A DNA stretch of 63,188 bases from a virus: IMG/VR virus record IMGVR_UViG_3300045988_166537; one strand, given 5' to 3'. Shown in pieces: positions 1,384 to 63,188 of the stretch. A model generated the notes under the pieces. That model did not search any database. It saw only the letters and a program-made list of their open reading frames with translations, and was not told the DNA's origin. Made by a program: the position numbers and the translations under genes. The stretch's first letter is position 1. Each line of letters begins with the position of its first letter.

Positions 1384-1455
1384 GCTATCACCTGCTTTCA
1401 AATATGTTGTTATACACTTAGATGGCATTTGTAAGGACTTATGGGGCCTGTTCAC

Positions 1456-1693
1456 GGATGGTTGGCGAACAAAAAATATGCAAACTTGAAAGGAGTTTTA
1501 CTATAGGGATTTGTATATAGACGGAGGAGTATCTACGTCCCACCACAGGTTATCCCATAAACCCTTGCAAATATCATCTAAGCTGTTTTTCCAAATATTC
1601 CCCCGGGGAATTTTTGAGGAGGCCGGCGATGACGGGAGGGGGTGCATTTTTACAGCCCCCCCCTATGTCTTTTCGCCCTCTATGTTGCGTTAT
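1456..1693. other. Non-coding GC-rich island; candidate cos or late-regulatory region
   Basis: No ORF is present. It contains the palindrome ATTCCCC-C-GGGGAAT (1597-1611), a C8 run (1656-1663) facing GGGAGGGGG (1634-1642), and 'ggccggcg', all within an AT-rich genome. It lies directly upstream of the packaging genes. Confidence 0.3.
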
Positions 1694-1966
1694 TTATGCT
1701 GCATTATCTTCCATTTCCACTTTTTTATATAGATTGAATGGATCTGAAGTGATTATACTGTCTATTGCACGTTCAACTTCTCTATCATATTCAACCTGAG
1801 ACATTCCATCAGAAATGTGGGTAATTCTTCCGAGATAGTTGCATGTATAATAACCTTTTTCTGTGTCAAAGTTATTCCAATCATTGAATTCAGTAATTGG
1901 ATTGAAAGGATTGTCAAAAGTTGTAATAGCAACTCGCTTGTTTGTATTTGCATTGATGCCTGCCAT
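1694..1966 (-). CDS. Hypothetical protein (90 aa)
   Basis: Track ORF. Its start codon follows immediately after the stop codon (1967-1969) of the RNAP-like gene. Confidence 0.7.
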   Translation of the reverse strand: MAGINANTNKRVAITTFDNPFNPITEFNDWNNFDTEKGYYTCNYLGRITHISDGMSQVEYDREVERAIDSIITSDPFNLYKKVEMEDNAA

Positions 1967-4900
1967 TTACTTCACTCCTTTCAAATACTTTGAAACTGTT
2001 GATGTTGAAACGCCAAGTTTGTTTGCAATTTCCTGCAATGTATAGTTAGACGCTGCGAGTGCTTTGATTCTGCTAACTTTCGCTGTACTTAGTTCAGAAG
2101 TCTGTTTTGGCATTGCTCTTTCTCTAAGCTTATCAGCATTTGCATTATTGAGAATACGAACAAGCATGTTATTAGTTATGGCACCAGCCTGAATAGCTTC
2201 CCATTCTTTGTCTGTGATGTTAATTTCTCTGTCTCTTCTTGAAGATGCACCAACATCTATACGACTGGCAACTATAGCCTGCTGAGATGCCTTCTTTATA
2301 TCGCTAACCTTGAGATCCTTATTGTTTGCTTTCTTTTCGCCAACAATAACACTGGCCTTTCTCTGTGCTGCACGCTCCCTCGGTGCATTGAGTTCGGCAG
2401 TATTAAGTTTCTCTTCCAGACTCTTTACCTCTGATGCATACTTCTTCTTAGCCTCTTTTGACATAGCTATATTTTCTATATTTGCATAGTCCAGTCGAGC
2501 TCGGTTGGCCATAGCCTTCATGCTATTAGCATAATCTGCATACAGTAGTTCCATAGGGTGTCTAGCCTTGGATACTAATGTATTAGCATCGTCTGTCTCA
2601 GCCATCTTAGTACTCTGCTGTTTTTTATAGTCCCTTGCATACTCTATGGTACCCGTCTTATCAGTATAGGTTACTTCCTTGGTCACGGGGTCTATATGCT
2701 TAACAGGGGTATACTTCTCTGCTGCTACTGGGTCGTCCTTCTTATACTTGATGGTCTCACCGGATGCGGTCTTGATACTAACCACTCCTGACTTACTCGT
2801 GGGTCGCTTAGGATAGTACAGGTCTTCAGTGGTCTTGTATATAAGTGCACCTTCAGGCTTGCTTGGGTCATACCAATCTTTGCCTTTTTGATTGATCTTT
2901 GGTGTACCTTGTCGCTTTGGTACTGACGTTTCACCCTTGCTTCTCGAAAGAATTGTAGCAGCGCCACCAGCTCTTACAAGATTCCCGTTCTCATCGTATT
3001 TAGGCTGATACTCTTTTCTAAGAGCTGAAATGTTATTGTCATGCTCGCTCTGTTTATAGTCTAGCTTATGTTTCTCAGCATCAATAACTACCATTGAATG
3101 TCTAACTGCTGCTGCAAGCTGATCTTCTCCAGCTCCCGCAAGTGTCATATCTGTAATCAGATTTGAAATTTTCCCCATCTCAGTCTGAGTGTTCTTCATG
3201 ATCCTGTACTCATGGCCATTACGATAGTAGTGCTTCTCTCCATTACTATCTACTTTGCACTCACCGCCATAAGCAACCTTAGGATCAAATCCCTCAAGCC
3301 CCTTCAAAGGCTTTGTAGATGTGATCTTAACTTTTCCACCGGCATCATGCGTTGGAATACACATAGCAGTATCACCATCAAAGTCTGCTCCAGACAATCT
3401 TTCTGCTACTTTGCTGTTAATACCTATGGCATCCTGAACATCACCGCCAAGAAGTTTCTTTGCCTCTTTATAATTGTTGTTTACAGTAAGTATAGGTATC
3501 TCAAATGTTCCACCATGCGGAAATCTGATGAGTGCTAGCTTGGTTCCTGTTTCATAGTTGGGGGCATACACTTCTGTGTCCTTCATTGTTGGAAATGGGA
3601 TAATAACATGATATCTCTGTCCCGGAAGTGCTGCCGCCTGAAGATTAACTGCTGCTGAATCACAGCCCTCCGCAAACTTCTGAAGATAGTGTTTTTTTAT
3701 GACAGGATTCGTAAGGGACATAATCTCGTCATATTCTGCTGCTTTGTCTGCCTTGGCGAGATCTAGCTGCTTTTTTGCCATCGTTACAGACTGCTTACCA
3801 AGAAACTGCGATGGTAGTGCATTTTTCCATTCAGTCCAGTCACCCTGATCAGCTCTTTTATTTATAAGCCCCAGTTTTTCTTCTCCGGTCTTAGCATCTT
3901 TGTACCAATACTGTCCACCCTGGTCAACATCTTTTATAAGAGATCCAAAAGGATTGTCTGGGTCACTCTTTATATCTTTAAGGACTTCCATCTTTGGCAC
4001 GTCTTTTGTTTTATTTGTATTAAATATAACGTCAATGCCATCTGGCATATCGTCAGAATATACTGCCATACCTTTGAGATACTTCTTACCGTCTACCATG
4101 ATACGAACCTGTGCATATTTGGAATCACCAAGGCTAAGGTCTTGGCATCCCCTACGAAGTTCTATTGTTCCGTCCTTTTCTATTCCACCATCTTCGCTAT
4201 AACGAATCATAAGCCGCTTGGAATCAAGACTTTCTGGATATGTAAATTTACGATGGAATGTTTCACCGCCATCTGTTGAAAAATAGTCGGTCAAAGGTTT
4301 GACTTTATCCAGATCATATATTTCTGAATGTGGTATATCTGGTTTAGTAAGAACTTTCTGAGTAGTCATCTGGTTTGAATTAGTCGCCTGTGGAAATCTA
4401 CCATTATATACATGGTATCCTTCTCTTTCCAGAATGGTTAATGCCTGATTCATCTTCTCCTCAGAAATATGAAGCTCACGCTCAACCCCCTTACCGACAT
4501 CAACCATACCCTTCTTATCAACCTGCTCTCTCATGAAATCAGCAGCATTCCTAGCCTGTTTCATTCGACTCTCAGAATCTGCATTGAGTAGTGATCTGAC
4601 TGTGGATTCAGATATGCCCATCTGTCTTCCAATCTCTGTAGCGCCAAGGCCATCTTCTTTGAGTGACTTGGCTCTTGATACATCGAGCATTCTTCTCTCA
4701 TCCTTACAAAGAGACTTCTCAGTTCTATACTGTGTTGTTGTCATACCAAAGGTATTTCTTATATTATCCGGAGTTTCTTCCCAGCCGTCTTTCTTGAGCG
4801 ATTCAACTCTACTCAAAAAATCATCGCCATGCTGATATGGGTTTTCTCCAGACCCCCAAGGATATCTGCCAGAACGCCTTGGCATTCCGTAATGCTCAAG

Positions 4901-4969
4901 AACCTCAGCATCTACAGGTTCTGAACCGCATCCCAAATTTGATTTTATTTCATCTGAAATTGAACTCAT
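1967..4969 (-). CDS. Single-subunit RNA polymerase with two double-psi beta-barrels (YonO-like), 1000 aa
   Basis: The beta-prime-like barrel reads 'RFPHGGTFEIP...SGADFDGDTAMCIPT' (ADFDGD encoded at 3371-3388). The beta-like barrel reads 'DGKKYLKGMAVYSDDMPDGIDVIFNTN' (4013-4093). HTH-like segments lie near aa 105-128 and aa 975-998. Confidence 0.7.
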   Translation of the reverse strand: MSSISDEIKSNLGCGSEPVDAEVLEHYGMPRRSGRYPWGSGENPYQHGDDFLSRVESLKKDGWEETPDNIRNTFGMTTTQYRTEKSLCKDERRMLDVSRAKSLKEDGLGATEIGRQMGISESTVRSLLNADSESRMKQARNAADFMREQVDKKGMVDVGKGVERELHISEEKMNQALTILEREGYHVYNGRFPQATNSNQMTTQKVLTKPDIPHSEIYDLDKVKPLTDYFSTDGGETFHRKFTYPESLDSKRLMIRYSEDGGIEKDGTIELRRGCQDLSLGDSKYAQVRIMVDGKKYLKGMAVYSDDMPDGIDVIFNTNKTKDVPKMEVLKDIKSDPDNPFGSLIKDVDQGGQYWYKDAKTGEEKLGLINKRADQGDWTEWKNALPSQFLGKQSVTMAKKQLDLAKADKAAEYDEIMSLTNPVIKKHYLQKFAEGCDSAAVNLQAAALPGQRYHVIIPFPTMKDTEVYAPNYETGTKLALIRFPHGGTFEIPILTVNNNYKEAKKLLGGDVQDAIGINSKVAERLSGADFDGDTAMCIPTHDAGGKVKITSTKPLKGLEGFDPKVAYGGECKVDSNGEKHYYRNGHEYRIMKNTQTEMGKISNLITDMTLAGAGEDQLAAAVRHSMVVIDAEKHKLDYKQSEHDNNISALRKEYQPKYDENGNLVRAGGAATILSRSKGETSVPKRQGTPKINQKGKDWYDPSKPEGALIYKTTEDLYYPKRPTSKSGVVSIKTASGETIKYKKDDPVAAEKYTPVKHIDPVTKEVTYTDKTGTIEYARDYKKQQSTKMAETDDANTLVSKARHPMELLYADYANSMKAMANRARLDYANIENIAMSKEAKKKYASEVKSLEEKLNTAELNAPRERAAQRKASVIVGEKKANNKDLKVSDIKKASQQAIVASRIDVGASSRRDREINITDKEWEAIQAGAITNNMLVRILNNANADKLRERAMPKQTSELSTAKVSRIKALAASNYTLQEIANKLGVSTSTVSKYLKGVK

Positions 4970-4972
4970 GAT

Positions 4973-5539
4973 TTAAGCAGCCTCCTTTTCTAACTTTTCA
5001 AGAAGTTTGTCGAGGTGAATTATCTTGTCCATGATCGGAGCAATCTCCTCTGCTGTTGGATTATGAACCAGCACTTCATCCTGCTTGTATAGCCGGAGTT
5101 CCATCTCAATGTCGCCAGGAGCAACATGATATTCAAGACAAAATAAAGCAGCATAAACCTCCAGCTGCTCGATATGGTCTTCGATCTTTCCAGACTTACC
5201 AGTTTTTAAATCATGAATTCGTAATACATTATTCTTGAAAGATATGGCATCCGCTGTGCCAAAAAATCTCTCAGAATAAAATAAAACAACCTCTGTACTC
5301 ATCTTGAATCCGATTGCATCATTTACATATGCATTCAGAGTCTTCTTTGTACGAGGTTGTTTAATCCCAAGGTCTATTGTTTCTTTAGCCCATGCATGGA
5401 GCCTTGTTCCAATCTGTGCCATTTTCAGGTTTCGATACACCTCAATTGCTTTGGTATCATCATACCTGAGCCACGAGCTTTTACTCGCCGAGAAAGGCGC
5501 GTGAAGGCCTTCCAGTTTCAAATGCTGATTGAAGTTCAT
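4973..5539 (-). CDS. PD-(D/E)XK (RecB/Cas4-like) nuclease (188 aa)
   Basis: 'GTADAISF...IHDLKTGKS...QLEVYAALF' fits the D / (D/E)xK / QxxxY pattern. Confidence 0.6.
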   Translation of the reverse strand: MNFNQHLKLEGLHAPFSASKSSWLRYDDTKAIEVYRNLKMAQIGTRLHAWAKETIDLGIKQPRTKKTLNAYVNDAIGFKMSTEVVLFYSERFFGTADAISFKNNVLRIHDLKTGKSGKIEDHIEQLEVYAALFCLEYHVAPGDIEMELRLYKQDEVLVHNPTAEEIAPIMDKIIHLDKLLEKLEKEAA

Positions 5540-5804
5540 CTAAAATTTCCTCCTTGTTCTCTGGGTAAATAAAAGCAGCATACGACATCTTATCCATAAG
5601 GTTTACATAGTAATCCTGATTTGGGCGATGGCTTGCTCTTTTGCTCTCTTTACCTTCCAGTGCTGCCCATTTGTCCCTATACAAAATAAGCAGGTCTGGT
5701 ATTCCCTGTCTTTCTGTGGCATCCAGATGTATCACCATACTTCCTGGAAACCGATGTTCAATTTCTTTTTTTAGATCTGCCTTGAATTTTCCTTCAGGTG
5801 TCAC
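5481..5804 (-). CDS. VRR-NUC-type nuclease (107 aa)
   Basis: Track ORF 5481..5936 trimmed to the GTG at 5804, 9 nt after AAGGAGGAA. The longer ORF would run through promoter copy 1. The motif 'GIPDLLILYRDKWAALEGK' is present. Confidence 0.6.
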   Translation of the reverse strand: MTPEGKFKADLKKEIEHRFPGSMVIHLDATERQGIPDLLILYRDKWAALEGKESKRASHRPNQDYYVNLMDKMSYAAFIYPENKEEILDELQSAFETGRPSRAFLGE

Positions 5805-5880
5805 TAAAACATTCCTCCTTTCATTTTCAGAAAGAAAAATAGAAGCACACATAAATATGGCGCTTCTTACCTCTCTCTCT

Positions 5881-5906
5881 ATAAAAGGGGATGTATTTGC
5901 CGCGAG
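5881..5906 (-). promoter_or_regulatory. Conserved promoter-like element, copy 1 (weak variant)
   Basis: Minus strand reads CTCGCG GCAAATACATCCCC TTTTAT. It lies upstream of the VRR-NUC / nuclease / RNAP-like operon. Confidence 0.5.
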
Positions 5907-5990
5907 CAAAAATAATAGGGATTGTGTCTGCTGCAAAAAAAGAAGAGCCGTTGCAAATTTAACGACTCTCCTGATTGAGATAGATTATTT

Positions 5991-6251: not shown

Positions 6252-6292
6252 AATAAAATCCTCCTTTTGAATCATTAAAAAGTTTCTATCTC

Positions 6293-6318
6293 ATTATATA
6301 AGATGTATTTGCCGCGAA
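6293..6318 (-). promoter_or_regulatory. Conserved promoter-like element, copy 2
   Basis: Minus strand reads TTCGCG GCAAATACATCTTA TATAAT. It lies about 27 nt upstream of the SD of 5991..6251. Confidence 0.7.
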
Positions 6319-7250: not shown

Positions 7251-7284
7251 AATGAATCTCCTTTCATGTTTAACAAATAGTTTC

Positions 7285-7310
7285 ATTATAGAAGATGTAT
7301 TTTTCGCGAA
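7285..7310 (-). promoter_or_regulatory. Conserved promoter-like element, copy 3
   Basis: Minus strand reads TTCGCG AAAAATACATCTTC TATAAT, embedded in the palindrome TTTTCGCGAAAA. Confidence 0.7.
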
Positions 7311-14246: not shown

Positions 14247-14263
14247 AGTTCATCACTCCTTTC

Positions 14264-14289
14264 ACTATAGAGCATGTAGACTACGCGAA
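14264..14289 (-). promoter_or_regulatory. Conserved promoter-like element, copy 4
   Basis: Minus strand reads TTCGCG TAGTCTACATGCTC TATAGT. The hexamer lies 1 nt from the SD. Confidence 0.65.
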
Positions 14290-14311: not shown

Positions 14312-14596
14312 TTAGTACTCACTTGGGAATAAAATCGTCGTGACACTCCTATCCCGCTCGGTAATTATCCATATTTTGCCGTATTTTTCATCTTCATACA
14401 TCGCCAAAATACGATCATCACCATTTTTTACGGCTTTATCGTTCATTTTTGCATCATCAGGACGTATATTCCCCCAGTCGCAGGTCTCATACCGCTTGAA
14501 TGACACAAGAATAAACTTAATAAAGCCAGGATTGTGTTCCATCTTGGCGGCAACCCCGGCTGTAACTACGACCTGACCAGTCTCAAATTTATCCAT
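14312..14596 (-). CDS. Conserved phage/plasmid protein of unknown function (94 aa)
   Basis: Trimmed to the ATG at 14596 after GGGGGAGGTG. 'CDWGNI...KIWIITERDRSVTTILFPSEY' is a pattern I recognise from plasmid and phage hypothetical proteins. Confidence 0.65.
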   Translation of the reverse strand: MDKFETGQVVVTAGVAAKMEHNPGFIKFILVSFKRYETCDWGNIRPDDAKMNDKAVKNGDDRILAMYEDEKYGKIWIITERDRSVTTILFPSEY

Positions 14597-14598
14597 TT

Positions 14599-14844
14599 TT
14601 AGCACCTCCCCCATACAAACTCGCTAAGTTCTTTGTATTCGTTACCATTAAGCAAAAATAAATGTCCACTGCATATCAAATTATGTCCTCTTGTTGAATA
14701 TGAACCGTCTATACTGGTCTTCCTACCACAAATGACACAAGTATACAGATCATCGCCGTCGTATCGTCCTACTCTTCCAGTTTTTTTGAACTGTGCTACA
14801 TTTGCAGCATCAACTTCTTTGTACTTATCTATATTTTTTATCAT
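14599..14844 (-). CDS. Zinc-binding protein (81 aa)
   Basis: Trimmed to the ATG at 14844 after AGAGGAGGA. 'CVICGRK...CSGH' is present. Confidence 0.65.
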   Translation of the reverse strand: MIKNIDKYKEVDAANVAQFKKTGRVGRYDGDDLYTCVICGRKTSIDGSYSTRGHNLICSGHLFLLNGNEYKELSEFVWGRC

Positions 14845-18142: not shown

Positions 18143-18157
18143 ATCGATCACCTCCTC

Positions 18158-18183
18158 ATTATAGAGGTTGTAAATATCGCGAC
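18158..18183 (-). promoter_or_regulatory. Conserved promoter-like element, copy 5
   Basis: Minus strand reads GTCGCG ATATTTACAACCTC TATAAT. The hexamer abuts the SD GAGGAGG. Confidence 0.65.
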
Positions 18184-18450: not shown

Positions 18451-18492
18451 ACTATATATATATATTCATAGTCTGTCATATACTTCACCTCC

Positions 18493-18518
18493 ACTATAGA
18501 GGCTGTTCTTTACGCGAA
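18493..18518 (-). promoter_or_regulatory. Conserved promoter-like element, copy 6
   Basis: Minus strand reads TTCGCG TAAAGAACAGCCTC TATAGT. It overlaps the stop codon of 18494..18814. Confidence 0.65.
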
Positions 18519-22832: not shown

Positions 22833-22846
22833 AAAATCACCTCCTC

Positions 22847-22872
22847 ATTATAGAGGCTGTAATCTACGCGAT
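22847..22872 (-). promoter_or_regulatory. Conserved promoter-like element, copy 7
   Basis: Minus strand reads ATCGCG TAGATTACAGCCTC TATAAT. It overlaps the last codons and stop of the polymerase gene, and the hexamer abuts the SD. Confidence 0.65.
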
Positions 22873-25800
22873 ACTCTGTTTGAACGGTATATCACCAGTT
22901 ACTCCAGGTGGAATATACATAAAATCCATAGGCGGGTCAGTACATACATATGGATCATCCGAAGCAAACTGCTCAAAATCACCATACTTAGATATTTCTG
23001 CTATTGCTGCATCTACCTGTTTTCTGTAGAACGACTTGTCTATAGCGTTCTCTTTTCCGATCTGTCTCACCATCTCAGATTCAAGCCATCTATATCCAGT
23101 TGATCCCGATGCCGCATAGTTCTTGCCATTATCCACACGATATAGCACACCGCCATTCTCGCCAGTCAATATCGGTGTAAACTGACCAACCCTTCCTACA
23201 AACTGTAGGTTGTGACCCGGTTCAATATCCTCAGCAAGTTTCTTAGCCTCAGGCTCAAACATTATATCTGATATCTTACCTTTCTTATAGTCACTCTCGA
23301 GTTTATCAAGCTGCTTCTCAAGCTCACTCACGTCCGGAAGTTTTTCATTGATGTCCAAATATAAAGCTCCCTTGGATACTGAAAATGTCTCACACATGTC
23401 ATCAAATACTATTGGTTCATGGCTGAACAGAGTCTTGAATACATATGGGACTGCAAACTGCTTACCTGTAGCTGTCCATTCTCCACCATGCTCAGTATTA
23501 TCACCTGGCACATAACCATACATCCTCTGACAATCTTCTGGCGACTTGTATTTTGCAATATATACCGCATCGTTTACAAGGCACATCTTTTCATATGTAG
23601 CCTCATGCTCAAATGTGTATCCGTACCTCTTACCAAAGTCCATAACGAACTTGATAATCTCTGGTGTTGCATCTGGTATCTTGATTGAGTCTGTCTTGAT
23701 ATGAGCAACCTTGAATCCACGCTCCATAACTGCATGCTTGAGATCTATCATGAACAGTGCTCCACGCTTTGCCACTATATTATCGACATTTCTATTATCT
23801 CTGAACGGATTGTCAAAACCTGCGGCTGTCAAACCATAAACTGAATTAATAGCTGTCTTGAGTGCATTTGCCAAGTCCTTATGACTCAATTCACCGTTCT
23901 TAACTTTCTCAATATACGGTCTGAGCTTACCATCCATCATTTGGTCAACTTCATCCCATGCTTTATGTTTAATACTTACACGTCCCTCTACAATATCACG
24001 GAATGCTCTAGTGTATCTGACACCAAATAAACATTCTGCTATTATTGTATGCGGATGCATTGAAGCAATATCAAGCAATGCTACGTTGCCATACATGCCA
24101 GGAAAACCCTGAGCAAAGCCACCCTCTTTTGGGTCTTCTCCTCTGTACATTGACTTGCCAAATTCATGCGTATAGCCTGGGAAATATGGAAGTAAGCTGT
24201 CCTCTTTGAACGGTACTTCTGCATGTGGCGGATTATGTGGCGCTGCCATCATCTCCGGACATGTATCTTTTAGAAATAACAGCACATCAGGCGGAAGCTC
24301 TTTCACTGGCTGCGACAAATCCCTATACATGAATTCGCTCTGAGGTTTTCTATTCTTGCCAAATATAATTCTTGTAGTCAGAGTATTTGTTGTATCGTTA
24401 GCGGTCATCTCAGCCAAATCTGCCAGAATCTGCCTTGCTGTCCAGTCTGCCTTTAAATAATAAAATGCTGCCTCTGTGGATATAACATCGTTATCACAAT
24501 ATTCAGCAACTTTCACCCATAGTTCCTTTGGTACAGGCTTATCCCATTCTAATCCAAGCTCCTGGTGTTTGATCCTCAGTAATAACTTTCTGAGTTCATC
24601 ACTTATCTTAGATTTTGGGTCGTGAGCAACCTTTGACATCTCTATCTCGAGCTTCTTCAAACTCTTTTTATTGGTAGACGATGCAAAATCATAAATATCA
24701 GTGTACGATATGTTATACGCCTCGCCAAAGAATGCGTTATTATCATGATTTATTATCCTCTGTGATAATCTGTAGAGCTGCTCGTTGTCATATCCCATCA
24801 TAATTGCAAACAGAATATGATTATCGTATCGCCTACAGTTAAATCCGATCAGCCTATACCCAGTTATCAACTTCTCAATATCTATAGGCTTTGGATTGAT
24901 CATACGAACCATCGAATTTCCTTCACCAGCAATCTCCCAGTTCACCAAGCATAAGTTCGGAAATATCTCTATATCATAAAATGCTATAGGTTTCTCCGTG
25001 TCCTCAGTATTTTCAGAAGGTTCATCCGACTTGAACTTCATTTCTTTTACCTGCTTAATACAAAAGTCTGCATTATTTGTACTTGACATGGCAAACGCCA
25101 GCACAGCGTCGAACATATCACTTACGTCATAATGCAGACCTTGATTATAAGCATCGTCTAATATTTGTCGTATAAAACAAATACTGGGCTTAGTAGCTGG
25201 GTGTATCTCTTTATTGAGATTCCTTTTTATCAGCTGTCTAAGCCCTCGCTCGCTCTTTATTTTATCTTTTCCTACCGTGTTTTTCTCCTCCTTCAAAGGT
25301 AATCCAGAGTTAATAGTCGCTATAGGAATATCGTTACACTTGGTAAGCATACGTCTTAATGAACTATTACCCGTAAATACCTTTATTTCAATATCCTCAT
25401 CATAAATACGACTAAGCATTGAAACGTCCCCATCATAAATATAATGAAGATGTATGCCAGCTCCACTCTTACTGAGTTCTGCATATGTAGCAGGCCACTT
25501 ACTTGCCGCTTCAAGATTTCTCTCGAAGGATTTTTTACCATCATCTCCTTTTTTATCGAAGTCTATACCTATCAGATTAGTTTTGACATCTTGGACTTTC
25601 ACGTAATGCAGTTTATGAGTATCGAGCTCTTTCAGTTTAGTTTTACACTTATCCCATGATATCGTCGGAGTTTCGTTACTTGACGCATATTGCGCTGGAC
25701 AATCCGCGAGTTCATCGTCAAGTAAACTATGTTGTTCTTTAAACCTCAACCATGCAGGAATACTCGTTTCAGCAACTTCTGTCTTCTCTGTAGGTTCCTC

Positions 25801-27102
25801 ACGCTCAAAAATATCAGTTCTAAATCCAGTATAGTAACTTCTTACCCTCGCGCCGTCATCAAGTGCTATACGATCAGAATACTCTCTGAAATAGTTCTTG
25901 AGTTCTTCTTTGAAACTTCTCTGAGAATATGGATAAGGCACCTTTGCATCATCACAATACAACTTGTACATTTCCCACGCCTCTTTGAGTGTTGTACTGT
26001 CATGCTTCTTAAATACATGGTATGCACTCAATATAAAGTTGTAGAAATCATTTGACGCTCCCAGCATCGCAACTGGCACATAGTCGTCATATCTTCCTGG
26101 ATTTTCCAAATATACTTCCTTGCAATGCCAGGCAATAGCCCCAAGCTCAAACTTAACTTTTGCCATCGCCTCTTTGTATTCTTTTTGGCTGAGCTTATCC
26201 CCTGATGGAGATACATCTATCAGACGTCTTAACAAACCCGATTTACCATCGGTGATCCTTACTGGTTTGTTTGTACCCATGATAAGAAAACACTTAAAAC
26301 TGTTTGTATATGTACTTTTGAACTTCTCGTTTACCGTCATCTGCTCATGTGACACCAAACTGTTTATCTTCGTGTTATCCTCAATCCTGGATAGATCGCC
26401 GTCATGCTCTATTGCTACAAGCGGATTCGATCTGAATGCCTCCAGAGCAAATACATTCGTAGCAGAACCCAATGCCTTTGAATCAAATACCGAATAATAC
26501 CCATCAAATAACATCTGAATAATATTCAAAACTGTTGATTTACCTGTTCCGGCAGCACCATACAACACTACAAACTTCTGAATAGTCTTGCTATCGCCAG
26601 TTATGATCGAACCGATAGCCCATTCAATCTTGCGACGCTCCTCCTCAGAATATAAAGTAGATAATAGCTTATCCCATGATGAATAGTCGCCCGCCTCAAG
26701 AGGATACGGCAGTCGTTTACTTGCATAATCCTCTTTTCTGGCGGCATCATTTGAAAATATAAGTTTTTCATCCAACATATGGAACGAATCTCTGGACTGT
26801 TTCTGACAATATTTATGAAACTTATCAATCATCCCAGTATCGGCATCCCACATATACATAGGTTTTGCTAAATCTGTAAATCTGTCTCTATTCTCCTCAT
26901 AATATGTTTTTATTTCCTGATCTATGAGACGGACAACATCTTCTTCATCAGTCGACCAAAGTTTATGTTCTTCGTCCCATATAGCGTAGAAATCCTGACC
27001 GCGAATCATGAGATCCTTACTCTTCTTGATGATGAATTTAGGATATATCTCAACCTCGCCACGTTTGGGCGATCTGGTTGCGATAGTCATAAAATCTAAC
27101 AT
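22864..27102 (-). CDS. SF3 helicase - AEP primase - family B DNA polymerase fusion (1412 aa)
   Basis: The helicase part has Walker A 'GAAGTGKST', Walker B 'VAIEHDGD' and 'LIMGTN...SGLLRR'. The AEP part has 'GIDFD' and 'SKSGAGIHLHY'. The PolB part has ExoI 'FYDIEIF', ExoII 'FNCRRYDNHIL', ExoIII 'YCDNDV', motif A 'DIASMHPH', motif B 'KTAINSVYG' and motif C 'IKTDSI'. Confidence 0.8.
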   Translation of the reverse strand: MLDFMTIATRSPKRGEVEIYPKFIIKKSKDLMIRGQDFYAIWDEEHKLWSTDEEDVVRLIDQEIKTYYEENRDRFTDLAKPMYMWDADTGMIDKFHKYCQKQSRDSFHMLDEKLIFSNDAARKEDYASKRLPYPLEAGDYSSWDKLLSTLYSEEERRKIEWAIGSIITGDSKTIQKFVVLYGAAGTGKSTVLNIIQMLFDGYYSVFDSKALGSATNVFALEAFRSNPLVAIEHDGDLSRIEDNTKINSLVSHEQMTVNEKFKSTYTNSFKCFLIMGTNKPVRITDGKSGLLRRLIDVSPSGDKLSQKEYKEAMAKVKFELGAIAWHCKEVYLENPGRYDDYVPVAMLGASNDFYNFILSAYHVFKKHDSTTLKEAWEMYKLYCDDAKVPYPYSQRSFKEELKNYFREYSDRIALDDGARVRSYYTGFRTDIFEREEPTEKTEVAETSIPAWLRFKEQHSLLDDELADCPAQYASSNETPTISWDKCKTKLKELDTHKLHYVKVQDVKTNLIGIDFDKKGDDGKKSFERNLEAASKWPATYAELSKSGAGIHLHYIYDGDVSMLSRIYDEDIEIKVFTGNSSLRRMLTKCNDIPIATINSGLPLKEEKNTVGKDKIKSERGLRQLIKRNLNKEIHPATKPSICFIRQILDDAYNQGLHYDVSDMFDAVLAFAMSSTNNADFCIKQVKEMKFKSDEPSENTEDTEKPIAFYDIEIFPNLCLVNWEIAGEGNSMVRMINPKPIDIEKLITGYRLIGFNCRRYDNHILFAIMMGYDNEQLYRLSQRIINHDNNAFFGEAYNISYTDIYDFASSTNKKSLKKLEIEMSKVAHDPKSKISDELRKLLLRIKHQELGLEWDKPVPKELWVKVAEYCDNDVISTEAAFYYLKADWTARQILADLAEMTANDTTNTLTTRIIFGKNRKPQSEFMYRDLSQPVKELPPDVLLFLKDTCPEMMAAPHNPPHAEVPFKEDSLLPYFPGYTHEFGKSMYRGEDPKEGGFAQGFPGMYGNVALLDIASMHPHTIIAECLFGVRYTRAFRDIVEGRVSIKHKAWDEVDQMMDGKLRPYIEKVKNGELSHKDLANALKTAINSVYGLTAAGFDNPFRDNRNVDNIVAKRGALFMIDLKHAVMERGFKVAHIKTDSIKIPDATPEIIKFVMDFGKRYGYTFEHEATYEKMCLVNDAVYIAKYKSPEDCQRMYGYVPGDNTEHGGEWTATGKQFAVPYVFKTLFSHEPIVFDDMCETFSVSKGALYLDINEKLPDVSELEKQLDKLESDYKKGKISDIMFEPEAKKLAEDIEPGHNLQFVGRVGQFTPILTGENGGVLYRVDNGKNYAASGSTGYRWLESEMVRQIGKENAIDKSFYRKQVDAAIAEISKYGDFEQFASDDPYVCTDPPMDFMYIPPGVTGDIPFKQSIA

Positions 27103-27132
27103 ACTCACCACCCTCTCTTTTCATTATTTGAT

Positions 27133-28287: not shown

Positions 28288-29226
28288 TCATGCACATACA
28301 TAATCGGTAATTGGCCCGTCTACATTGAAATCCAACAATACCGCCTTCTCATATCCATTAACGAATCTACGTTTAGCAGCATTGTTGACATCAAATATGC
28401 CGAAATCCACAAAATTGTCACCGATTGGATTCTTCTCATCATAAATCCAGCCAACCTCATGGCCGATCTTAGTTCCCTGGAAACCAAGCATACTGAATAC
28501 ATCATTCAGATATAAATATCCCTGTGCTTTGAGCTTTTCGTTCGCCCAGTTCTGCTGCTGTCTGAGGAACCATAACGTCTGCTCTGGGTCATCATTCCAG
28601 CCAGTATTGCCACAGTCAAATATTCTTGTATATGCCGATAGTGTATTTGGATCTACAACATCATATTCCTCGGTAACAACTGTCTGAGTACCATCTTCAT
28701 TCTGCACCACAGTCTCCATGGTATTGTGCTGGATATTGTATCTGAGTTCCTGATCCACTTCTTTTCCGAACTTCTCAACAACTCTGTTTCTATACTCCTT
28801 GAATGACTTATTTACAGTCATATAAGCAGTAGCAAGAGCTGCATTTCTCTGTCTGAGAATCCTGTTAGATGTAACTATGCTACCTATTGATAATGCGCCA
28901 AGCAATATGGATGGCCCATAGAGCTTCGTAAGCTCCCAACCAGTCTGCATATAGATAGTTGTAAGGCCCTTCTTACAGTCCTTCATCGTGTACTCTGTCT
29001 CTTCGCCGTCTTCGATAGCCTTGATATCTTCATGAACAGAATCTAGCTTATTATGAGATTCCTCCATAACATCGTCAAGTTTTCTTGTAGCCACGCATGC
29101 CCATATTGCGCTGCCTACCGTACCTACTACTCCAACGATCATGCATATCTCCGGGCTATGCTGCCTGGTCTTAAATATAGCTTTATTGGCTGCTACTGCC
29201 ATCTTTGAGAAAAATTTACTCTTCAT
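28288..29226 (-). CDS. Membrane protein, paralogue A of a three-member family (DUF6353-like), 312 aa
   Basis: It shares a two-TM hairpin, 'NRILRQRNAALATAY...EYRNRVVEKFG' and 'GHEVGW' blocks with 31457..32266 and 32432..33253. Confidence 0.7.
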   Translation of the reverse strand: MKSKFFSKMAVAANKAIFKTRQHSPEICMIVGVVGTVGSAIWACVATRKLDDVMEESHNKLDSVHEDIKAIEDGEETEYTMKDCKKGLTTIYMQTGWELTKLYGPSILLGALSIGSIVTSNRILRQRNAALATAYMTVNKSFKEYRNRVVEKFGKEVDQELRYNIQHNTMETVVQNEDGTQTVVTEEYDVVDPNTLSAYTRIFDCGNTGWNDDPEQTLWFLRQQQNWANEKLKAQGYLYLNDVFSMLGFQGTKIGHEVGWIYDEKNPIGDNFVDFGIFDVNNAAKRRFVNGYEKAVLLDFNVDGPITDYVCA

Positions 29227-31381: not shown

Positions 31382-31424
31382 AGTTTTATCCTCCTAAAAT
31401 ATAATTTATTTGACTTATAGTCTC

Positions 31425-31450
31425 ATAATATGACTTGTAATTTTCGCGAA
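31425..31450 (-). promoter_or_regulatory. Conserved promoter-like element, copy 8
   Basis: Minus strand reads TTCGCG AAAATTACAAGTCA TATTAT. It lies about 40 nt upstream of the ATG. Confidence 0.7.
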
Positions 31451-31456
31451 TTTGCA

Positions 31457-32266
31457 TCAGTGATACATGGAATATTCGTACCTCGGAGCTACACGATAGC
31501 CTATTCCAAGACACGGACGACCATCCTTTGCAATATCACCAGTGATATCTAGCTGAATGAGTCCATCTCTACTTACATTCCAGCCAATCTCATCACCGAT
31601 TGATGTCCTTTCCAACCCAATCTTATCGTAGAAGTCGTTCAAAGATACATAGTCACAACTATTCAGTATCTCATTCAGGTCATTTACTGCTGCGCGAAGT
31701 GTTTCTCTGTCGGATTTAAAATATCTTTGAGATATATAATCCAGACAAAGCTGCTCTCCGTCCCCCGCTACGATAACCTGTGTATTTGGCGCTGGTGCTT
31801 TCTCGATTTTATCTTTAACAACTGCCTTTGCTATCTCTTTCTCTTTTTCCTCACCAATAGTCTCGATAACCTTGTTCTTATACTCATGCAATGCTGCTTC
31901 AGACATAGAGTATGCTGTAGCTATAGCTGCATTCCGCTTAGCATTCACATTGTTGGCACATATAATACATACCACTGATGTGGTGAACGATATAGCTGTT
32001 GGAATGTAGCACTTCCACGTTGCCTGTATGATTTCTTTCTTTGTGAGCTCCACTTCTACAGGGATATCTTCGACCTCTTCCTCCATGAGCTCGTTTATCT
32101 TGGCCTCTTTTACCTCTTCGACTTTCTTATTTGCAGCTATTGTGCCTTTGATAGCAAATATAACTGCACCTGCTGCTGATGTAATCCCCAAGCCTATCAG
32201 TATTGCAGGGCTATTTTTTCCAGCTTTGTTAGCCATTTTATTTATGGCTTTCGTGAATTTATTCAT
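31457..32266 (-). CDS. Membrane protein, paralogue B (DUF6353-like), 269 aa
   Basis: Trimmed to the ATG at 32266 after GAAGGAGAA. 'NVNAKRNAAIATAY...EYKNKVIETIG' and 'GDEIGW' are present. Confidence 0.7.
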   Translation of the reverse strand: MNKFTKAINKMANKAGKNSPAILIGLGITSAAGAVIFAIKGTIAANKKVEEVKEAKINELMEEEVEDIPVEVELTKKEIIQATWKCYIPTAISFTTSVVCIICANNVNAKRNAAIATAYSMSEAALHEYKNKVIETIGEEKEKEIAKAVVKDKIEKAPAPNTQVIVAGDGEQLCLDYISQRYFKSDRETLRAAVNDLNEILNSCDYVSLNDFYDKIGLERTSIGDEIGWNVSRDGLIQLDITGDIAKDGRPCLGIGYRVAPRYEYSMYH

Positions 32267-32426
32267 CGCAATTCTCCTTCTCAATTCTATTCATGGCTTC
32301 GTTTACCTTAGCTTCAACCATCTCTTCAGTCTGCTTCTCCTGCACATGATCTGATAACATAGATATACCAAAACTTAACACTGGTACGACCATTCCTAAT
32401 ATTTTTAACCACTTATTATTCTTCAT
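32259..32426 (-). CDS. Small membrane protein (55 aa)
   Basis: Trimmed to the ATG at 32426 after CAAGGAGGT. It has one TM segment. Confidence 0.6.
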   Translation of the reverse strand: MKNNKWLKILGMVVPVLSFGISMLSDHVQEKQTEEMVEAKVNEAMNRIEKENCDE

Positions 32427-32431
32427 TCCGT

Positions 32432-33253
32432 TTACCTCCTTGCGTCTCTCGAAAAAGATTCTATTGTGTAATCGCCTGATACCGAAACATATGACGCGTC
32501 TCGCCATTCGTCCAGGGCATCTTCATCTGGCCCATACATATAATCCACCTCATATATTGGTTCGCCATTCATTATCTCCTTTGTTTTTCTATGATGAATG
32601 TCGATCCAATACATACCACTATCAATACTCCAACCAATGTCATCACCATTTGAAATTGGTGAAAGGCCTACAAACTCTAACCATTCATTAAAAGTTACGT
32701 ATCCACGCATTACATAATTACGATTGATGTGGTACTCAGCATCCATGAGTTCCCGCTCGTACATATCAAAATGCTGATTGGAAATAGGTTCATAGAAATG
32801 GAATATCTTATCTGGAGTCGTAGCGCCTATCTGATGATAATTGCAATATTCCCTGATGACGTCGCCCATTATCTCCTTATCAACATCTTCACCATATCTC
32901 TTTACAACTTCTCCGCGATACTGAGCTAAGGTTTCCCTTACCATTGTGTATGCTGCCATAAGCTGTGCCTGTCTCTGATGGTTAATGACATTTGAACCAA
33001 TGATACAAGCAATAGTTGACACTGCGATAACACCTGTTGGAACATAAACTGGTGTTGCAATAACTATTTTTTCCTTAGTTGTGAGTGGCTCGCCTTTCCG
33101 AAGTTCTTCTTTCTTCAGTTTCCTCATTGCTTTGGGTGTTTCTTTCGCTGCAAATATACCCGTAGCAATAACACCCACTGTGCCTAATACTGTAAGTATC
33201 GTGGGCGAATGTTTTCGTACAAATATCTTTGCACATGGTACTAATCCTTTCAT
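32432..33253 (-). CDS. Membrane protein, paralogue C (DUF6353-like), 273 aa
   Basis: Trimmed to the ATG at 33253 after AAAGGAGGA. 'NVINHQRQAQLMAAY...QYRGEVVKRYG' and 'GDDIGW' are present. Confidence 0.7.
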   Translation of the reverse strand: MKGLVPCAKIFVRKHSPTILTVLGTVGVIATGIFAAKETPKAMRKLKKEELRKGEPLTTKEKIVIATPVYVPTGVIAVSTIACIIGSNVINHQRQAQLMAAYTMVRETLAQYRGEVVKRYGEDVDKEIMGDVIREYCNYHQIGATTPDKIFHFYEPISNQHFDMYERELMDAEYHINRNYVMRGYVTFNEWLEFVGLSPISNGDDIGWSIDSGMYWIDIHHRKTKEIMNGEPIYEVDYMYGPDEDALDEWRDASYVSVSGDYTIESFSRDARR

Positions 33254-33280
33254 ATAAATTCCTCCTTTAAAGATGTATTT

Positions 33281-33318
33281 ATAAAAATAAAAGACCCAAT
33301 GCATTAAGCACCGAGTCC
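33281..33318 (-). terminator. Intrinsic terminator after 33326..33493
   Basis: Minus RNA reads GGACUCGGUGC-UUAAU-GCAUUGGGUCUU followed by UUAUUUUUAU. Confidence 0.6.
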
Positions 33319-33493: not shown

Positions 33494-33509
33494 AATTGTC
33501 ACCTCCTTC

Positions 33510-33535
33510 ATTATAGAGACCGTAAAACTCGCGAA
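33510..33535 (-). promoter_or_regulatory. Conserved promoter-like element, copy 9
   Basis: Minus strand reads TTCGCG AGTTTTACGGTCTC TATAAT. The hexamer lies 2 nt from the SD. Confidence 0.65.
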
Positions 33536-34952: not shown

Positions 34953-34992
34953 AGTAAAATCCTCCTTAAAAATATAATTTTCCTACATTACC

Positions 34993-35018
34993 ATAATAGG
35001 ACCTGTTATTTGCGCGAA
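34993..35018 (-). promoter_or_regulatory. Conserved promoter-like element, copy 11
   Basis: Minus strand reads TTCGCG CAAATAACAGGTCC TATTAT. The TTCGCG lies within the last codons of 35006..35230. Confidence 0.7.
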
Positions 35019-35558: not shown

Positions 35559-35598
35559 AACTACTCCTCCTTAAATAAAAAATCTTAATCAATATTTC

Positions 35599-35624
35599 AT
35601 TATAGGAGTTGTTATTCTCGCGAA
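35599..35624 (-). promoter_or_regulatory. Conserved promoter-like element, copy 12
   Basis: Minus strand reads TTCGCG AGAATAACAACTCC TATAAT. It starts inside the U tract of the preceding terminator. Confidence 0.7.
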
Positions 35625-35838: not shown

Positions 35839-35873
35839 AATAGTTTCCTCCTTAAATGAAAGTTTATTGTTTC

Positions 35874-35899
35874 ATTATAGGAGCTGTAGATTACGCGAA
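35874..35899 (-). promoter_or_regulatory. Conserved promoter-like element, copy 13
   Basis: Minus strand reads TTCGCG TAATCTACAGCTCC TATAAT. Confidence 0.7.
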
Positions 35900-63011: not shown

Positions 63012-63188
63012 TTATATAGTAGCGAACTTGACTTTTCCAGCTTTATCTATTATATGAGTAGTTAGCTTACCTATCTTGTCTGCATTCTGAGCAATGGTAA
63101 GGACTGCTCCTGTTACTGTTGTCGCTGTTGCTAAAGTTTTCATAAATTTATCCACTTGCCTTTTACCTTCGTTTGAATACTTTGCGTA
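63012..63188 (-). CDS. 3' part of the junction-spanning 131-aa gene (see 1..274)
   Basis: TAA at 63012-63014. Positions 63134-63188 duplicate 1-55 and the frame is continuous. Confidence 0.7.
   Translation of the reverse strand, partial: YAKYSNEGKRQVDKFMKTLATATTVTGAVLTIAQNADKIGKLTTHIIDKAGKVKFATI
63134..63188. repeat. 55-nt terminal overlap, identical to 1..55
   Basis: Exact match with the window start. Confidence 0.95.

Follow-up and report, generated by a model that had tools for sequence, protein, structure and literature searches.

The YonO protein of the Bacillus phage SPbeta is a processive DNA-dependent RNA polymerase (RNAP) whose gene immediately precedes the late operon of that phage; mutation of its Asp triad abolishes template-dependent RNA synthesis, and its promoter and any cofactors were left unknown (Forrest et al. 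2017, PMC5467207). Another phage enzyme, P23-45 gp64, uses its own conserved promoter motif, which abuts the start site (Chaban et al. 2024, PMC10770324). Ruprich-Robert & Thuriaux (2010, PMC2919709) described a 'phage 1706' family of YonO-like proteins that carry the eight universal residues of two-barrel polymerases. Koert et al. (2021, bioRxiv 10.1101/842583) reported the family in actinophage clusters AM, AU, AW, BI, CC, DJ and EL and in the Lactococcus 1706 / Faecalibacterium (Oengus) group, noted helix-turn-helix (HTH) domains at both ends, a DxDGD motif and an HHpred match to PF05183 (95.7%), and termed the protein a possible signature RNA polymerase and a 'putative RNA polymerase'. Here we analyse a member of this family encoded at positions 1967..4969 (minus strand) of the IMG/VR virus record IMGVR_UViG_3300045988_166537, a stretch of 63,188 nucleotides referred to below as the window, together with a 28-nt promoter-like element repeated in the same genome. 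The gene product is very probably a single-chain two-barrel RNAP, and we lean towards reading the element as the promoter of this polymerase.

The window protein matched the profile phrog_4291 ('RNA-dependent RNA polymerase') from residue 20 to 998 against profile positions 8-907 of 909 (E=0, 1192 bits) and is 38-48% identical to Circum gp98, 1706 orf75 and ReqiPoco6 gp106. The family was found in 251 GenBank phage records, 243 of which cover at least 80% of the query, and comprises at least 8000 clusters at 90% identity; 1236 of the 50%-identity representatives were recovered at E<=1e-30. Prophage copies are present in genomes of Lachnospiraceae, Hungatella, Enterocloster and other Clostridia. 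A polymerase 100% identical to that of the window is encoded by IMGVR_UViG_3300045988_169034 (77.6 kb). An earlier note on this DNA, made from the sequence alone, had held that routine annotation misses the family, and this was borne out: Pfam recognises the HTH domains only, and most of the GenBank records carry the name 'HTH DNA-binding domain protein', with a few named 'RNA-dependent RNA polymerase' (RdRP). The family has not gone unrecognised, as the PHROGs entry and the two in silico studies cited above describe it. The window protein belongs to this phrog_4291 / 1706-actinophage supercluster, whose members have already been proposed in silico as polymerases. Like the window copy, the supercluster RNAPs have an HTH at each end, the DxDGD motif and a full-length hidden Markov model (HMM) match, and their loci share with the window a RecB/Cas4 exonuclease gene upstream, a small open reading frame (ORF) downstream and a location beside cos at the right genome end. 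In essentials the window copy does not differ; it stems from a temperate phage whose hosts are gut Clostridia (prophages of Lachnospiraceae type).

The polymerase ORF encodes 1000 amino acids from an ATG start, with AAAGGAGG just 5' of it. The motif blocks that had been read from the translation were all present where the earlier note placed them: IRFPHGGTFEIPIL spans residues 481-494, SGADFDGDTAMCIPT residues 526-540 (ADFDGD is encoded at nucleotides 3371-3388) and DGKKYLKGMAVYSDDMPDGIDVIFNTN residues 293-319 (nucleotides 4013-4093). The two HTH strings correspond to residues 109-128 and 976-996. To assess residue invariance, we aligned the window protein with 150 sequences representing clusters at 50% identity (n=151). 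R289, K299, G300, R482, P484, D529, D531 and D533 were conserved in 151/151 sequences and D266 in 149/151, while conservation of 97% or more was reached at just 80 of the 1000 positions. Because the catalytic residues are invariant in this alignment, the motifs go beyond chance. The eight universal residues of two-barrel polymerases (an Asp, two basic residues, R-x-P and D-x-D-x-D) are all present, in an order and spacing comparable to those of YonO and QDE-1.

Judged by spacing, D266 would be the equivalent of the universal Asp of the beta-like barrel. K299 most likely corresponds to the second of the conserved basic residues (E. coli beta K1073, QDE-1 K743) and R289 to the first, as indicated by the distance from the DMP motif and by an alignment that brings them into register with R266...K271-G272 of YonO. 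The pairing of K299 with the 'GNKG' lysine is, on the same two grounds, unlikely, and the register first proposed for the beta-like motif was probably shifted. A D530A/D532A mutant had been suggested as a negative control, but these residues are Phe530 and Gly532, and the Asp triad is D529/D531/D533. On the 3' side of the catalytic barrel, M598, G599, N603, D607, D630, K633 and H634 were likewise conserved in 151/151 sequences. They lie in a segment (residues 594-634) that aligns to IGEYSNNIT / TIDFAK of YonO and is modelled as two helices, 594-611 and 615-634, making it a candidate for the base of the bridge helix and trigger loop.

Pfam searches recognised HTH domains only, at residues ~106-128 and ~959-998, with Sigma70_r4 (7.7e-9), HTH_38 (1.5e-8) and Sigma70_r4_2 (4.5e-7) among the matches, which confirmed the HTH-like segments proposed near both ends. 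Their recognition helices are kept across phyla as ES(S/T)(V/I)R in the N-terminal and S(T/S)ST(V/L) in the C-terminal domain. PF05183 was not among the best 25 of the 43 Pfam families found at E<=1, all 25 being of HTH type, and was absent from the precomputed Pfam lists of 240 listed homologues, where HTH families were present. PDB sequence searches with the protein and with the family profile returned HTH matches only.

A structure was predicted with AlphaFold2 (AF2) from a 68-sequence alignment (mean predicted local distance difference test score (pLDDT) 78.6, predicted template modelling score (pTM) 0.62), and shows beta-rich modules at residues ~250-320 and ~450-541. The top 10 Foldseek matches in the PDB were exclusively single-chain two-barrel RNAPs (probability 0.99-1.00), among them QDE-1 (E 5e-7), gp62 of Thermus phage P74-26 (1.3e-5) and maize and Arabidopsis RDR2 (2.7e-5 to 1e-2); the largest subunits of multisubunit RNAPs ranked after the top 10 with weak E-values. 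In BFVD, the best Foldseek matches were viral predicted structures annotated as RdRP. The fold assignment draws on the specificity of these matches and on the invariant residues rather than on a residue-level superposition. The AlphaFold/Foldseek comparison that had been suggested as a check thus came out in favour of a two-barrel fold, and the proposal of both barrels on one chain, beta-like first and with the universal catalytic residues, is supported. By analogy with YonO and P23-45 gp64, the product would synthesise RNA on a DNA template.

The relationship to YonO is a distant one. HMM searches found no connection between the window family and the YonO family, and hhalign gave a probability of 0.4% against the single YonO sequence and 0.9% (E 0.063, 75 columns) against a 42-sequence YonO profile. 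With a 151-sequence profile of the window family the probability was 2.9% (P 0.016; P range ~0.016-0.06), far below HH-suite confidence. The only segment aligned to YonO was residues 458-541 against 469-547, the catalytic barrel, with RxPH and DxDGD in register; its score of 32.1 compares with a maximum of 29.8 in block-shuffled controls (higher than 40/40). In a relaxed, non-significant alignment, five conserved blocks follow in the same order as in YonO. YonO shares with the window protein a single chain with two barrels, beta-like first, the universal residues, a phage origin and a gene upstream of the late operon. It differs in having no HTH and in four invariant C-terminal cysteines (C799, C802, C816 and C819 of the YonO family), whereas the window protein has six scattered cysteines and no CxxC; SPbeta also has no 28-nt element. 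A solved YonO structure for comparison was not found. The designation 'YonO-like' therefore stands for the broad YonO/RdRP branch and fails for the narrow YonO family, to which there is no HMM link and which has the four-Cys C-terminus in place of the HTHs.

Among the other relatives, QDE-1 and RDR2 (PDB 7y7t, 5fsw, 7w82, 7roz; PF05183) are the best structural matches, with Foldseek E 5e-7 to 1e-3 and probability 1.0, and share the single-chain two-barrel core, but they are only 10-13% identical, eukaryotic, act on RNA or single-stranded DNA templates and have no HTH. The non-virion RNAPs P23-45 gp64 and P74-26 gp62 (PDB 8f5m; Foldseek 1.3e-5) are, like the window protein, phage-encoded single chains with two barrels, but are much smaller, at ~590 residues, without HTHs, use a GC-rich promoter and belong to another lineage and gene context.

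Five exact copies of TTCGCG-N14-TATAAT are present in the window, where 0.02 would be expected; they all lie on the minus strand, from 6.3 to 35.9 kb. With up to one mismatch there are 11 copies, all on the coding strand in the same interval. The copies share the longer pattern TTCGCG-N5-TACA-N4-C-TATAAT-G. The next base is G in 11/11 copies, and a Shine-Dalgarno (SD) sequence starts 0-3 nt after the element in 5/11. The late block of the window contains no copy, in agreement with the earlier observation that the elements are confined to the accessory half. The element does not fit sigma-70 geometry. The two hexamers are 14 nt apart in all copies and all phages (16-18 required), no TTGACA-like box was found at 17 nt from TATAAT, and an SD sequence 0-3 nt after TATAAT conflicts with a sigma-70 start 5-9 nt after the -10 box. 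A literature search for the motif strings returned unrelated primer matches only.

The same element was found in relatives infecting hosts of different phyla. Complete genomes were searched for repeats by an unbiased hexamer-dyad search, since naive k-mer counts were swamped by coding and low-complexity words. The consensus across phyla is TCGC(R)-N5-TACA-N4-C-TATAAT-G, with the same box spacing. Of the seven genomes scanned from phages with this RNAP, five (Clostridia, Arthrobacter, Gordonia, Rhodococcus and Lactococcus) carry 7-12 copies, on the coding strand only. Arthrobacter phage Circum has 8-9 copies of the form (A/T)TCGCG-TAAAT-TACA-N4-C-TATAAT; Lactococcus phage 1706 has 7 in one count and at least 10 of the form TTC(R)CA-TGTTT-TACA-N4-C-TATAGT-A in another (15 by the core pattern alone); Gordonia phage Avazak has 10, Rhodococcus phage ReqiPoco6 has 12, and Streptomyces phage Scap1 at least five relaxed copies. 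In the relatives, every copy is on the coding strand and falls within the non-structural arm, and in actinophages a conserved leader, GAGACCCCTA, comes next. The control phages SPbeta (which has YonO), phiC31 and sk1 gave no copies. In the interval 14568-14675 of ReqiPoco6, one copy ends 8 nt before an annotated tRNA gene, which indicates that the element is a DNA-level transcription signal and not a translation signal.

Larger sets of loci gave the same orientation. Around the polymerase gene in 56 genome loci, 59 matches were on the RNAP strand and none on the opposite strand; in 80 IMG/VR loci (1.16 Mb) there were 103 and none, with one match in shuffled sequence. Both sets together thus gave 162 matches on the RNAP strand and 0 on the opposite one. 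By place, 45 of the IMG/VR matches stand just before the VRR-Nuc gene that heads the polymerase operon (-1200..-700), 57 further upstream and one downstream. A TTTTAT-type variant is found in front of VRR-Nuc in ~45 of the 56 genome loci, as it is in the window.

The 14-nt spacing, the abutting SD sequences and the boxes shared across phyla do not fit host sigma-70, so that the reader of the element must be phage-encoded and common to the supercluster. Among the ~10 gene families common to the supercluster, the polymerase alone has sequence-specific DNA-binding domains; for this reason, and because its recognition helices are conserved across phyla, the element is on balance probably the polymerase's own promoter. 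We propose that the two sigma-4-like HTHs would read the 28-nt element (11 strong window copies and weaker ones) and that RNA synthesis would start at the purine directly after it. The weaker TTTTAT variant would drive the polymerase's own operon, which comprises the VRR-Nuc gene, the Cas4-like exonuclease, the polymerase and a 90-residue partner. Once the cos ends are joined, transcription of this operon might run across cos, through a structured leader and into the promoter-less ~25-kb late block. This last step is a doubtful conjecture, with which the conserved RNA stem that precedes the late genes is consistent, and the chain as a whole, from promoter-specific phage transcriptase to late read-through, has about an even chance of being right. 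The promoter logic resembles that of T7-type RNAPs, where an element of ~23-28 nt is repeated before gene groups and ends at the start, after which come a purine and a conserved initially transcribed sequence; T7-type enzymes differ in having a right-hand fold rather than two barrels, and recognition in the window phage is proposed to occur via the fused HTHs.

Several observations weigh against this reading. The element holds a perfect TATAAT, the universal sigma-A -10 box, and host RNAP, perhaps with a phage activator, could read it. A temperate phage must begin induction with host RNAP, which puts the origin of the first polymerase molecules in question. No promoter of any kind was found for the late block, and transcription into it across cos is conjectural. 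In MT835495, the relative that is closest among those annotated (polymerase 62.7% identical), there is one element copy only; since this scaffold is unverified and its genes are of mixed orientation, it speaks neither for nor against the link. On the side of the fold, global Foldseek TM-scores were low (0.22-0.34), as expected for a multidomain protein. The searchable literature contains no biochemical or transcript-mapping work on any family member.

The sequence between the polymerase operon and the late genes bears on the late part of this proposal. ATAGGGGGGGGCTGTAAAAATGCACCCCCTCCCGTCATCGCCGGCCT of the window matches the final bases of the Circum record (...CATCGCCGGCCT), and the ReqiPoco6 record annotates a 3' cos overhang at the equivalent place. 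This match to the extreme right end of Circum identifies the GC-rich sequence after the small ORF as cos; a late promoter at this conserved sequence was considered and rejected on the same ground. The right end of the virion DNA is thus predicted at about position 1620, just after the small ORF. The cos sequence was conserved in 30/44 distinct Clostridia prophage intergenic regions, and, on comparison of sequences, the packaging site is conserved across phyla. Several IMG/VR contigs stop 150-450 bp past the polymerase gene, as would follow from assemblies breaking off at cos. With the right end at ~1620, the polymerase operon and the late genes are adjacent only after cos joining, and in that sense the gene lies directly upstream of the late block, as had been proposed. 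A palindrome, AATATTCCCCCGGGGAATTTTT, lies directly left of cos (1594-1615) and is conserved as TTCTCCGGGGG in most relatives; it may be a binding site for terminase or a host factor.

Between cos and the first late gene lies a long-range stem that encloses ~108 nt with a nearly invariant, anti-SD-like UUUUCUCCUUUC and a loop around 1490-1500. All 29 of its 29 pairs were compensatory across 26 loci, 93.6% of cells were paired against 36-48% with slid partners, and 0/500 shuffles reached the observed values. Because G.U pairs outnumber A.C pairs (~4.5:1), an RNA of the coding strand is favoured. The stem has no Rfam match. Circum (502-537/663-698) and 1706 (32-65/146-179) have comparable long inverted repeats in the interval from the left end to the first late gene. 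The leader stem could act in antitermination or translation control of the late operon.

One rival explanation is a YonO-type late polymerase. Under that explanation, host sigma-A RNAP would read the elements and so express the early and middle genes, the polymerase operon among them, and the phage enzyme would then transcribe the late block from a promoter near cos. With cos joined, the gene directly precedes the late block, as yonO precedes the late operon in SPbeta; a processive enzyme suits a long late operon, a conserved structured leader heads that operon, the TATAAT of the element is perfect, and the late block of the window and of its relatives has no element. The box spacing is nevertheless constant in phages whose hosts are Clostridia, Bacilli or members of four actinobacterial genera, and a host sigma factor would not enforce TCGCR and TACA; the 14-nt spacing and abutting SD misfit the sigma-70 start geometry; and the interval from operon to late genes conserves only cos and the RNA stem, no second repeated promoter motif having been found there. 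The reading of the elements as host promoters, and hence of the polymerase as the enzyme of the late block, to which the earlier note had pointed, is weakened by the conservation of the element with the gene across host phyla and by its geometry. A late-gene role for the polymerase is possible, and this explanation as a whole is unlikely, though it keeps some weight.

A virion polymerase, made late, packaged and injected like the N4 virion RNAP, the crAss-like gp66 or P23-45 gp96, would instead transcribe the early genes from the elements ahead of any synthesis of phage proteins. GenBank labels 1706 orf75 a 'structural protein', a label copied by ReqiPoco6 gp106 and whose basis is unverified; the same label is given to the selective set of 1706 orfs 6, 7, 11, 12, 13, 17, 20, 21, 62 and 71, which looks like a virion proteome list, but an abundant DNA-binding protein can co-purify with virions. 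The gene adjoins the late block in the same orientation, and in Circum, 1706, Avazak and ReqiPoco6 copies of the element are grouped where the non-structural arm begins. The polymerase also has an invariant N-terminal peptide that could be a packaging signal. In this peptide S33, G34 and G39 are conserved in 151/151 sequences and R35 in 150/151, across phyla; the region has AF2 pLDDT <50 and is predicted to be disordered, and peptides of the HYGxPRRSGRYPWGSG type are confined to the polymerase protein in each phage checked. The peptide could also be a partner-binding site or a priming element. Against packaging, the model has no obvious translocation or ejection domains, and the window phage is temperate, with an integrase and prophage copies, so that induction cannot use an injected enzyme. 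We regard a virion polymerase as improbable.

Still less probable is an RdRP, or a synthase of primers or R-loops acting with the neighbouring nucleases. The closest solved structures are RdRPs (QDE-1, RDR2), the PHROG and some GenBank records use that name, and the gene is constantly linked to VRR-Nuc and Cas4-like nucleases with a helicase near. The name, however, derives from remote homology only, the characterised phage members of the fold (YonO, P23-45 gp64 and gp96) are all DNA-dependent, the phage has a primase-polymerase fusion and a helicase of its own, and two sequence-specific HTHs together with a conserved promoter-like element point to promoter-directed transcription. A primase role for the polymerase was set aside as unnecessary, since the phage has that fusion. 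A DNA-binding regulator with a dead or coincidental polymerase-like core, as the HTH-only Pfam matches and most annotations might suggest, is highly improbable, because the universal catalytic residues do not vary among 151 clusters at <=50% identity, the structure search singles out RNAPs and ~800 residues of non-HTH sequence are strongly constrained.

The features of the locus are listed in Table 1. An exact 55-bp direct repeat at the two termini (1-55 and 63134-63188) shows that the window was assembled as a circular contig; one ORF crosses the contig junction, between phrog_4247 and the large terminase gene. The phage, a temperate siphovirus, encodes an integrase, a primase-polymerase fusion and a helicase. 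Along the minus strand, the locus comprises in turn the variant element, VRR-Nuc-like gene, Cas4-like gene, polymerase gene, 90-residue ORF, cos, structured leader and late genes, the late block beginning with phrog_4259, HNH, phrog_4247, TerL and portal. The polymerase is third in an operon running from 5804 to 1694, and the two genes before it do encode nucleases, as the earlier note had it: a VRR-Nuc-like endonuclease, 56% identical to a region of Circum gp96 'VRR-Nuc', and a Cas4-like exonuclease. The block in this order is conserved in essentially all of the 56 genome loci and 80 IMG/VR loci, and the pair of polymerase and small ORF is also retained in Arthrobacter, Rhodococcus and Lactococcus phages. 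The small ORF belongs to phrog_4303, whose counterpart was listed as 'conserved hypothetical' by Koert et al. (2021, 10.1101/842583). It lies directly downstream of the RNAP gene in 51/56 genome loci and 77/80 IMG/VR loci as well as in Circum, ReqiPoco6, 1706 and Lactococcus P1046, and its product is a candidate accessory subunit; the single-sequence AF2 model of this protein (pLDDT 57) was too poor and was not used for a fold search.

Table 1. Features of the window around the polymerase gene, and copies of the promoter-like element.
Feature	Position	Strand	Basis or remark
Long-range 29-bp stem, arms 1417-1445 / 1554-1582	1417..1582	-	Covariation; between cos and first late gene
cos site	1620..1672	-	Match to Circum right end; predicted overhang CGCCGGCCT
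90-residue partner ORF, phrog_4303	1694..1966	-	phrog_4303 2.5e-28; no Pfam match
Polymerase gene, probable single-chain two-barrel RNAP, phrog_4291 family	1967..4969	-	ORF, PHROG match, AF2, Foldseek
C-terminal sigma-4-like HTH, residues ~959-998	1976..2095	-	Pfam Sigma70_r4, HTH_38
Two conserved helices 3' of catalytic barrel, residues 594-634 (MGKISNLITDM...VVIDAEKH)	3068..3190	-	Invariance, YonO alignment, model helices
Beta-prime-like double-psi beta-barrel, residues ~450-541: R482-x-P484-H485 and catalytic loop	3347..3622	-	Invariance; aligns to YonO profile
Catalytic Asp triad D529-F-D531-G-D533	3371..3385	-	151/151 conserved
Beta-like double-psi beta-barrel, residues ~250-320: D266, R289, K299-G300, DMP...D313...N317	4010..4222	-	Invariance; model strands 253-317; YonO register
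N-terminal sigma-4-like HTH, residues ~96-130	4580..4684	-	Pfam Sigma70_r4_2, GerE, HTH_28 at residues 106-128
N-terminal peptide HYGxPRRSGRYPWGSG, residues 26-41	4847..4894	-	Invariance; predicted disordered
Cas4/RecB-like PD-(D/E)XK exonuclease, second operon gene	4973..5539	-	phrog_3953 1e-72; Pfam PDDEXK_1
VRR-Nuc-like endonuclease, first operon gene, start GTG 5804	5481..5804	-	phrog_93 7.9e-12 from residue 45 of long ORF; SD and GTG
Variant element CTCGCGGCAAATACATCCCCTTTTATAG before polymerase operon	5879..5906	-	Position weight matrix score 17.8; TTTTAT form, right after terminator-like hairpin
Terminator-like hairpin and T-run between upstream gene and polymerase operon	5941..5972	-	
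Promoter-like element TTCGCGGCAAATACATCTTATATAAT-GA	6291..6318	-	
Promoter-like element	7283..7310	-	
Promoter-like element, TATAGT form	14262..14289	-	SD from 3 nt after
Promoter-like element	18156..18183	-	SD GAGGAGG directly after
Promoter-like element	18491..18518	-	
Promoter-like element	22845..22872	-	
Promoter-like element	31423..31450	-	
Promoter-like element	33508..33535	-	
Promoter-like element	34991..35018	-	
Promoter-like element	35597..35624	-	
Promoter-like element	35872..35899	-	

Elsewhere in the window, the primase-polymerase fusion is a 1415-residue protein encoded at 22864-27111 (minus strand; phrog_4210, E=0) with an N-terminal primase domain, and is common to Circum gp63, Scap1 gp42 and ReqiPoco6 gp72. 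Three phrog_2152 paralogues (E 1e-60 to 1e-78) lie within 5 kb of early region on the minus strand, at 28288-29226, 31457-32284 and 32432-33304, and at least two of the three have a promoter-like element in front. Rfam and tRNA scans of the window gave no matches.

The family itself is known; the link of the promoter-like element to the polymerase gene is new, and the published descriptions of the supercluster mention neither the element nor the leader stem. Taken together, the polymerase with its fused HTHs and a cognate promoter of ~28 nt, with G as +1, may form a host-independent transcription system in which the pair was kept almost unchanged while the lineage moved between Actinobacteria and Firmicutes, and to which the 90-residue partner and the structured late-leader RNA would also belong. 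We consider such a system plausible, if slightly less than evenly so. Within it, the partner protein and the leader RNA would possibly serve read-through or antitermination across cos.

The element makes promoter recognition by single-chain two-barrel RNAPs directly testable; if the proposal is true, this would be the first case in the YonO/RdRP branch with the promoter and its mode of recognition known. The family is present in many SEA-PHAGES isolates with culturable hosts, as well as in prophages of gut Lachnospiraceae. If the assignment holds, the pair of polymerase and promoter could give an orthogonal expression system for Gram-positive bacteria and actinomycetes, and hundreds of annotations reading 'HTH DNA-binding domain protein' would need correction.

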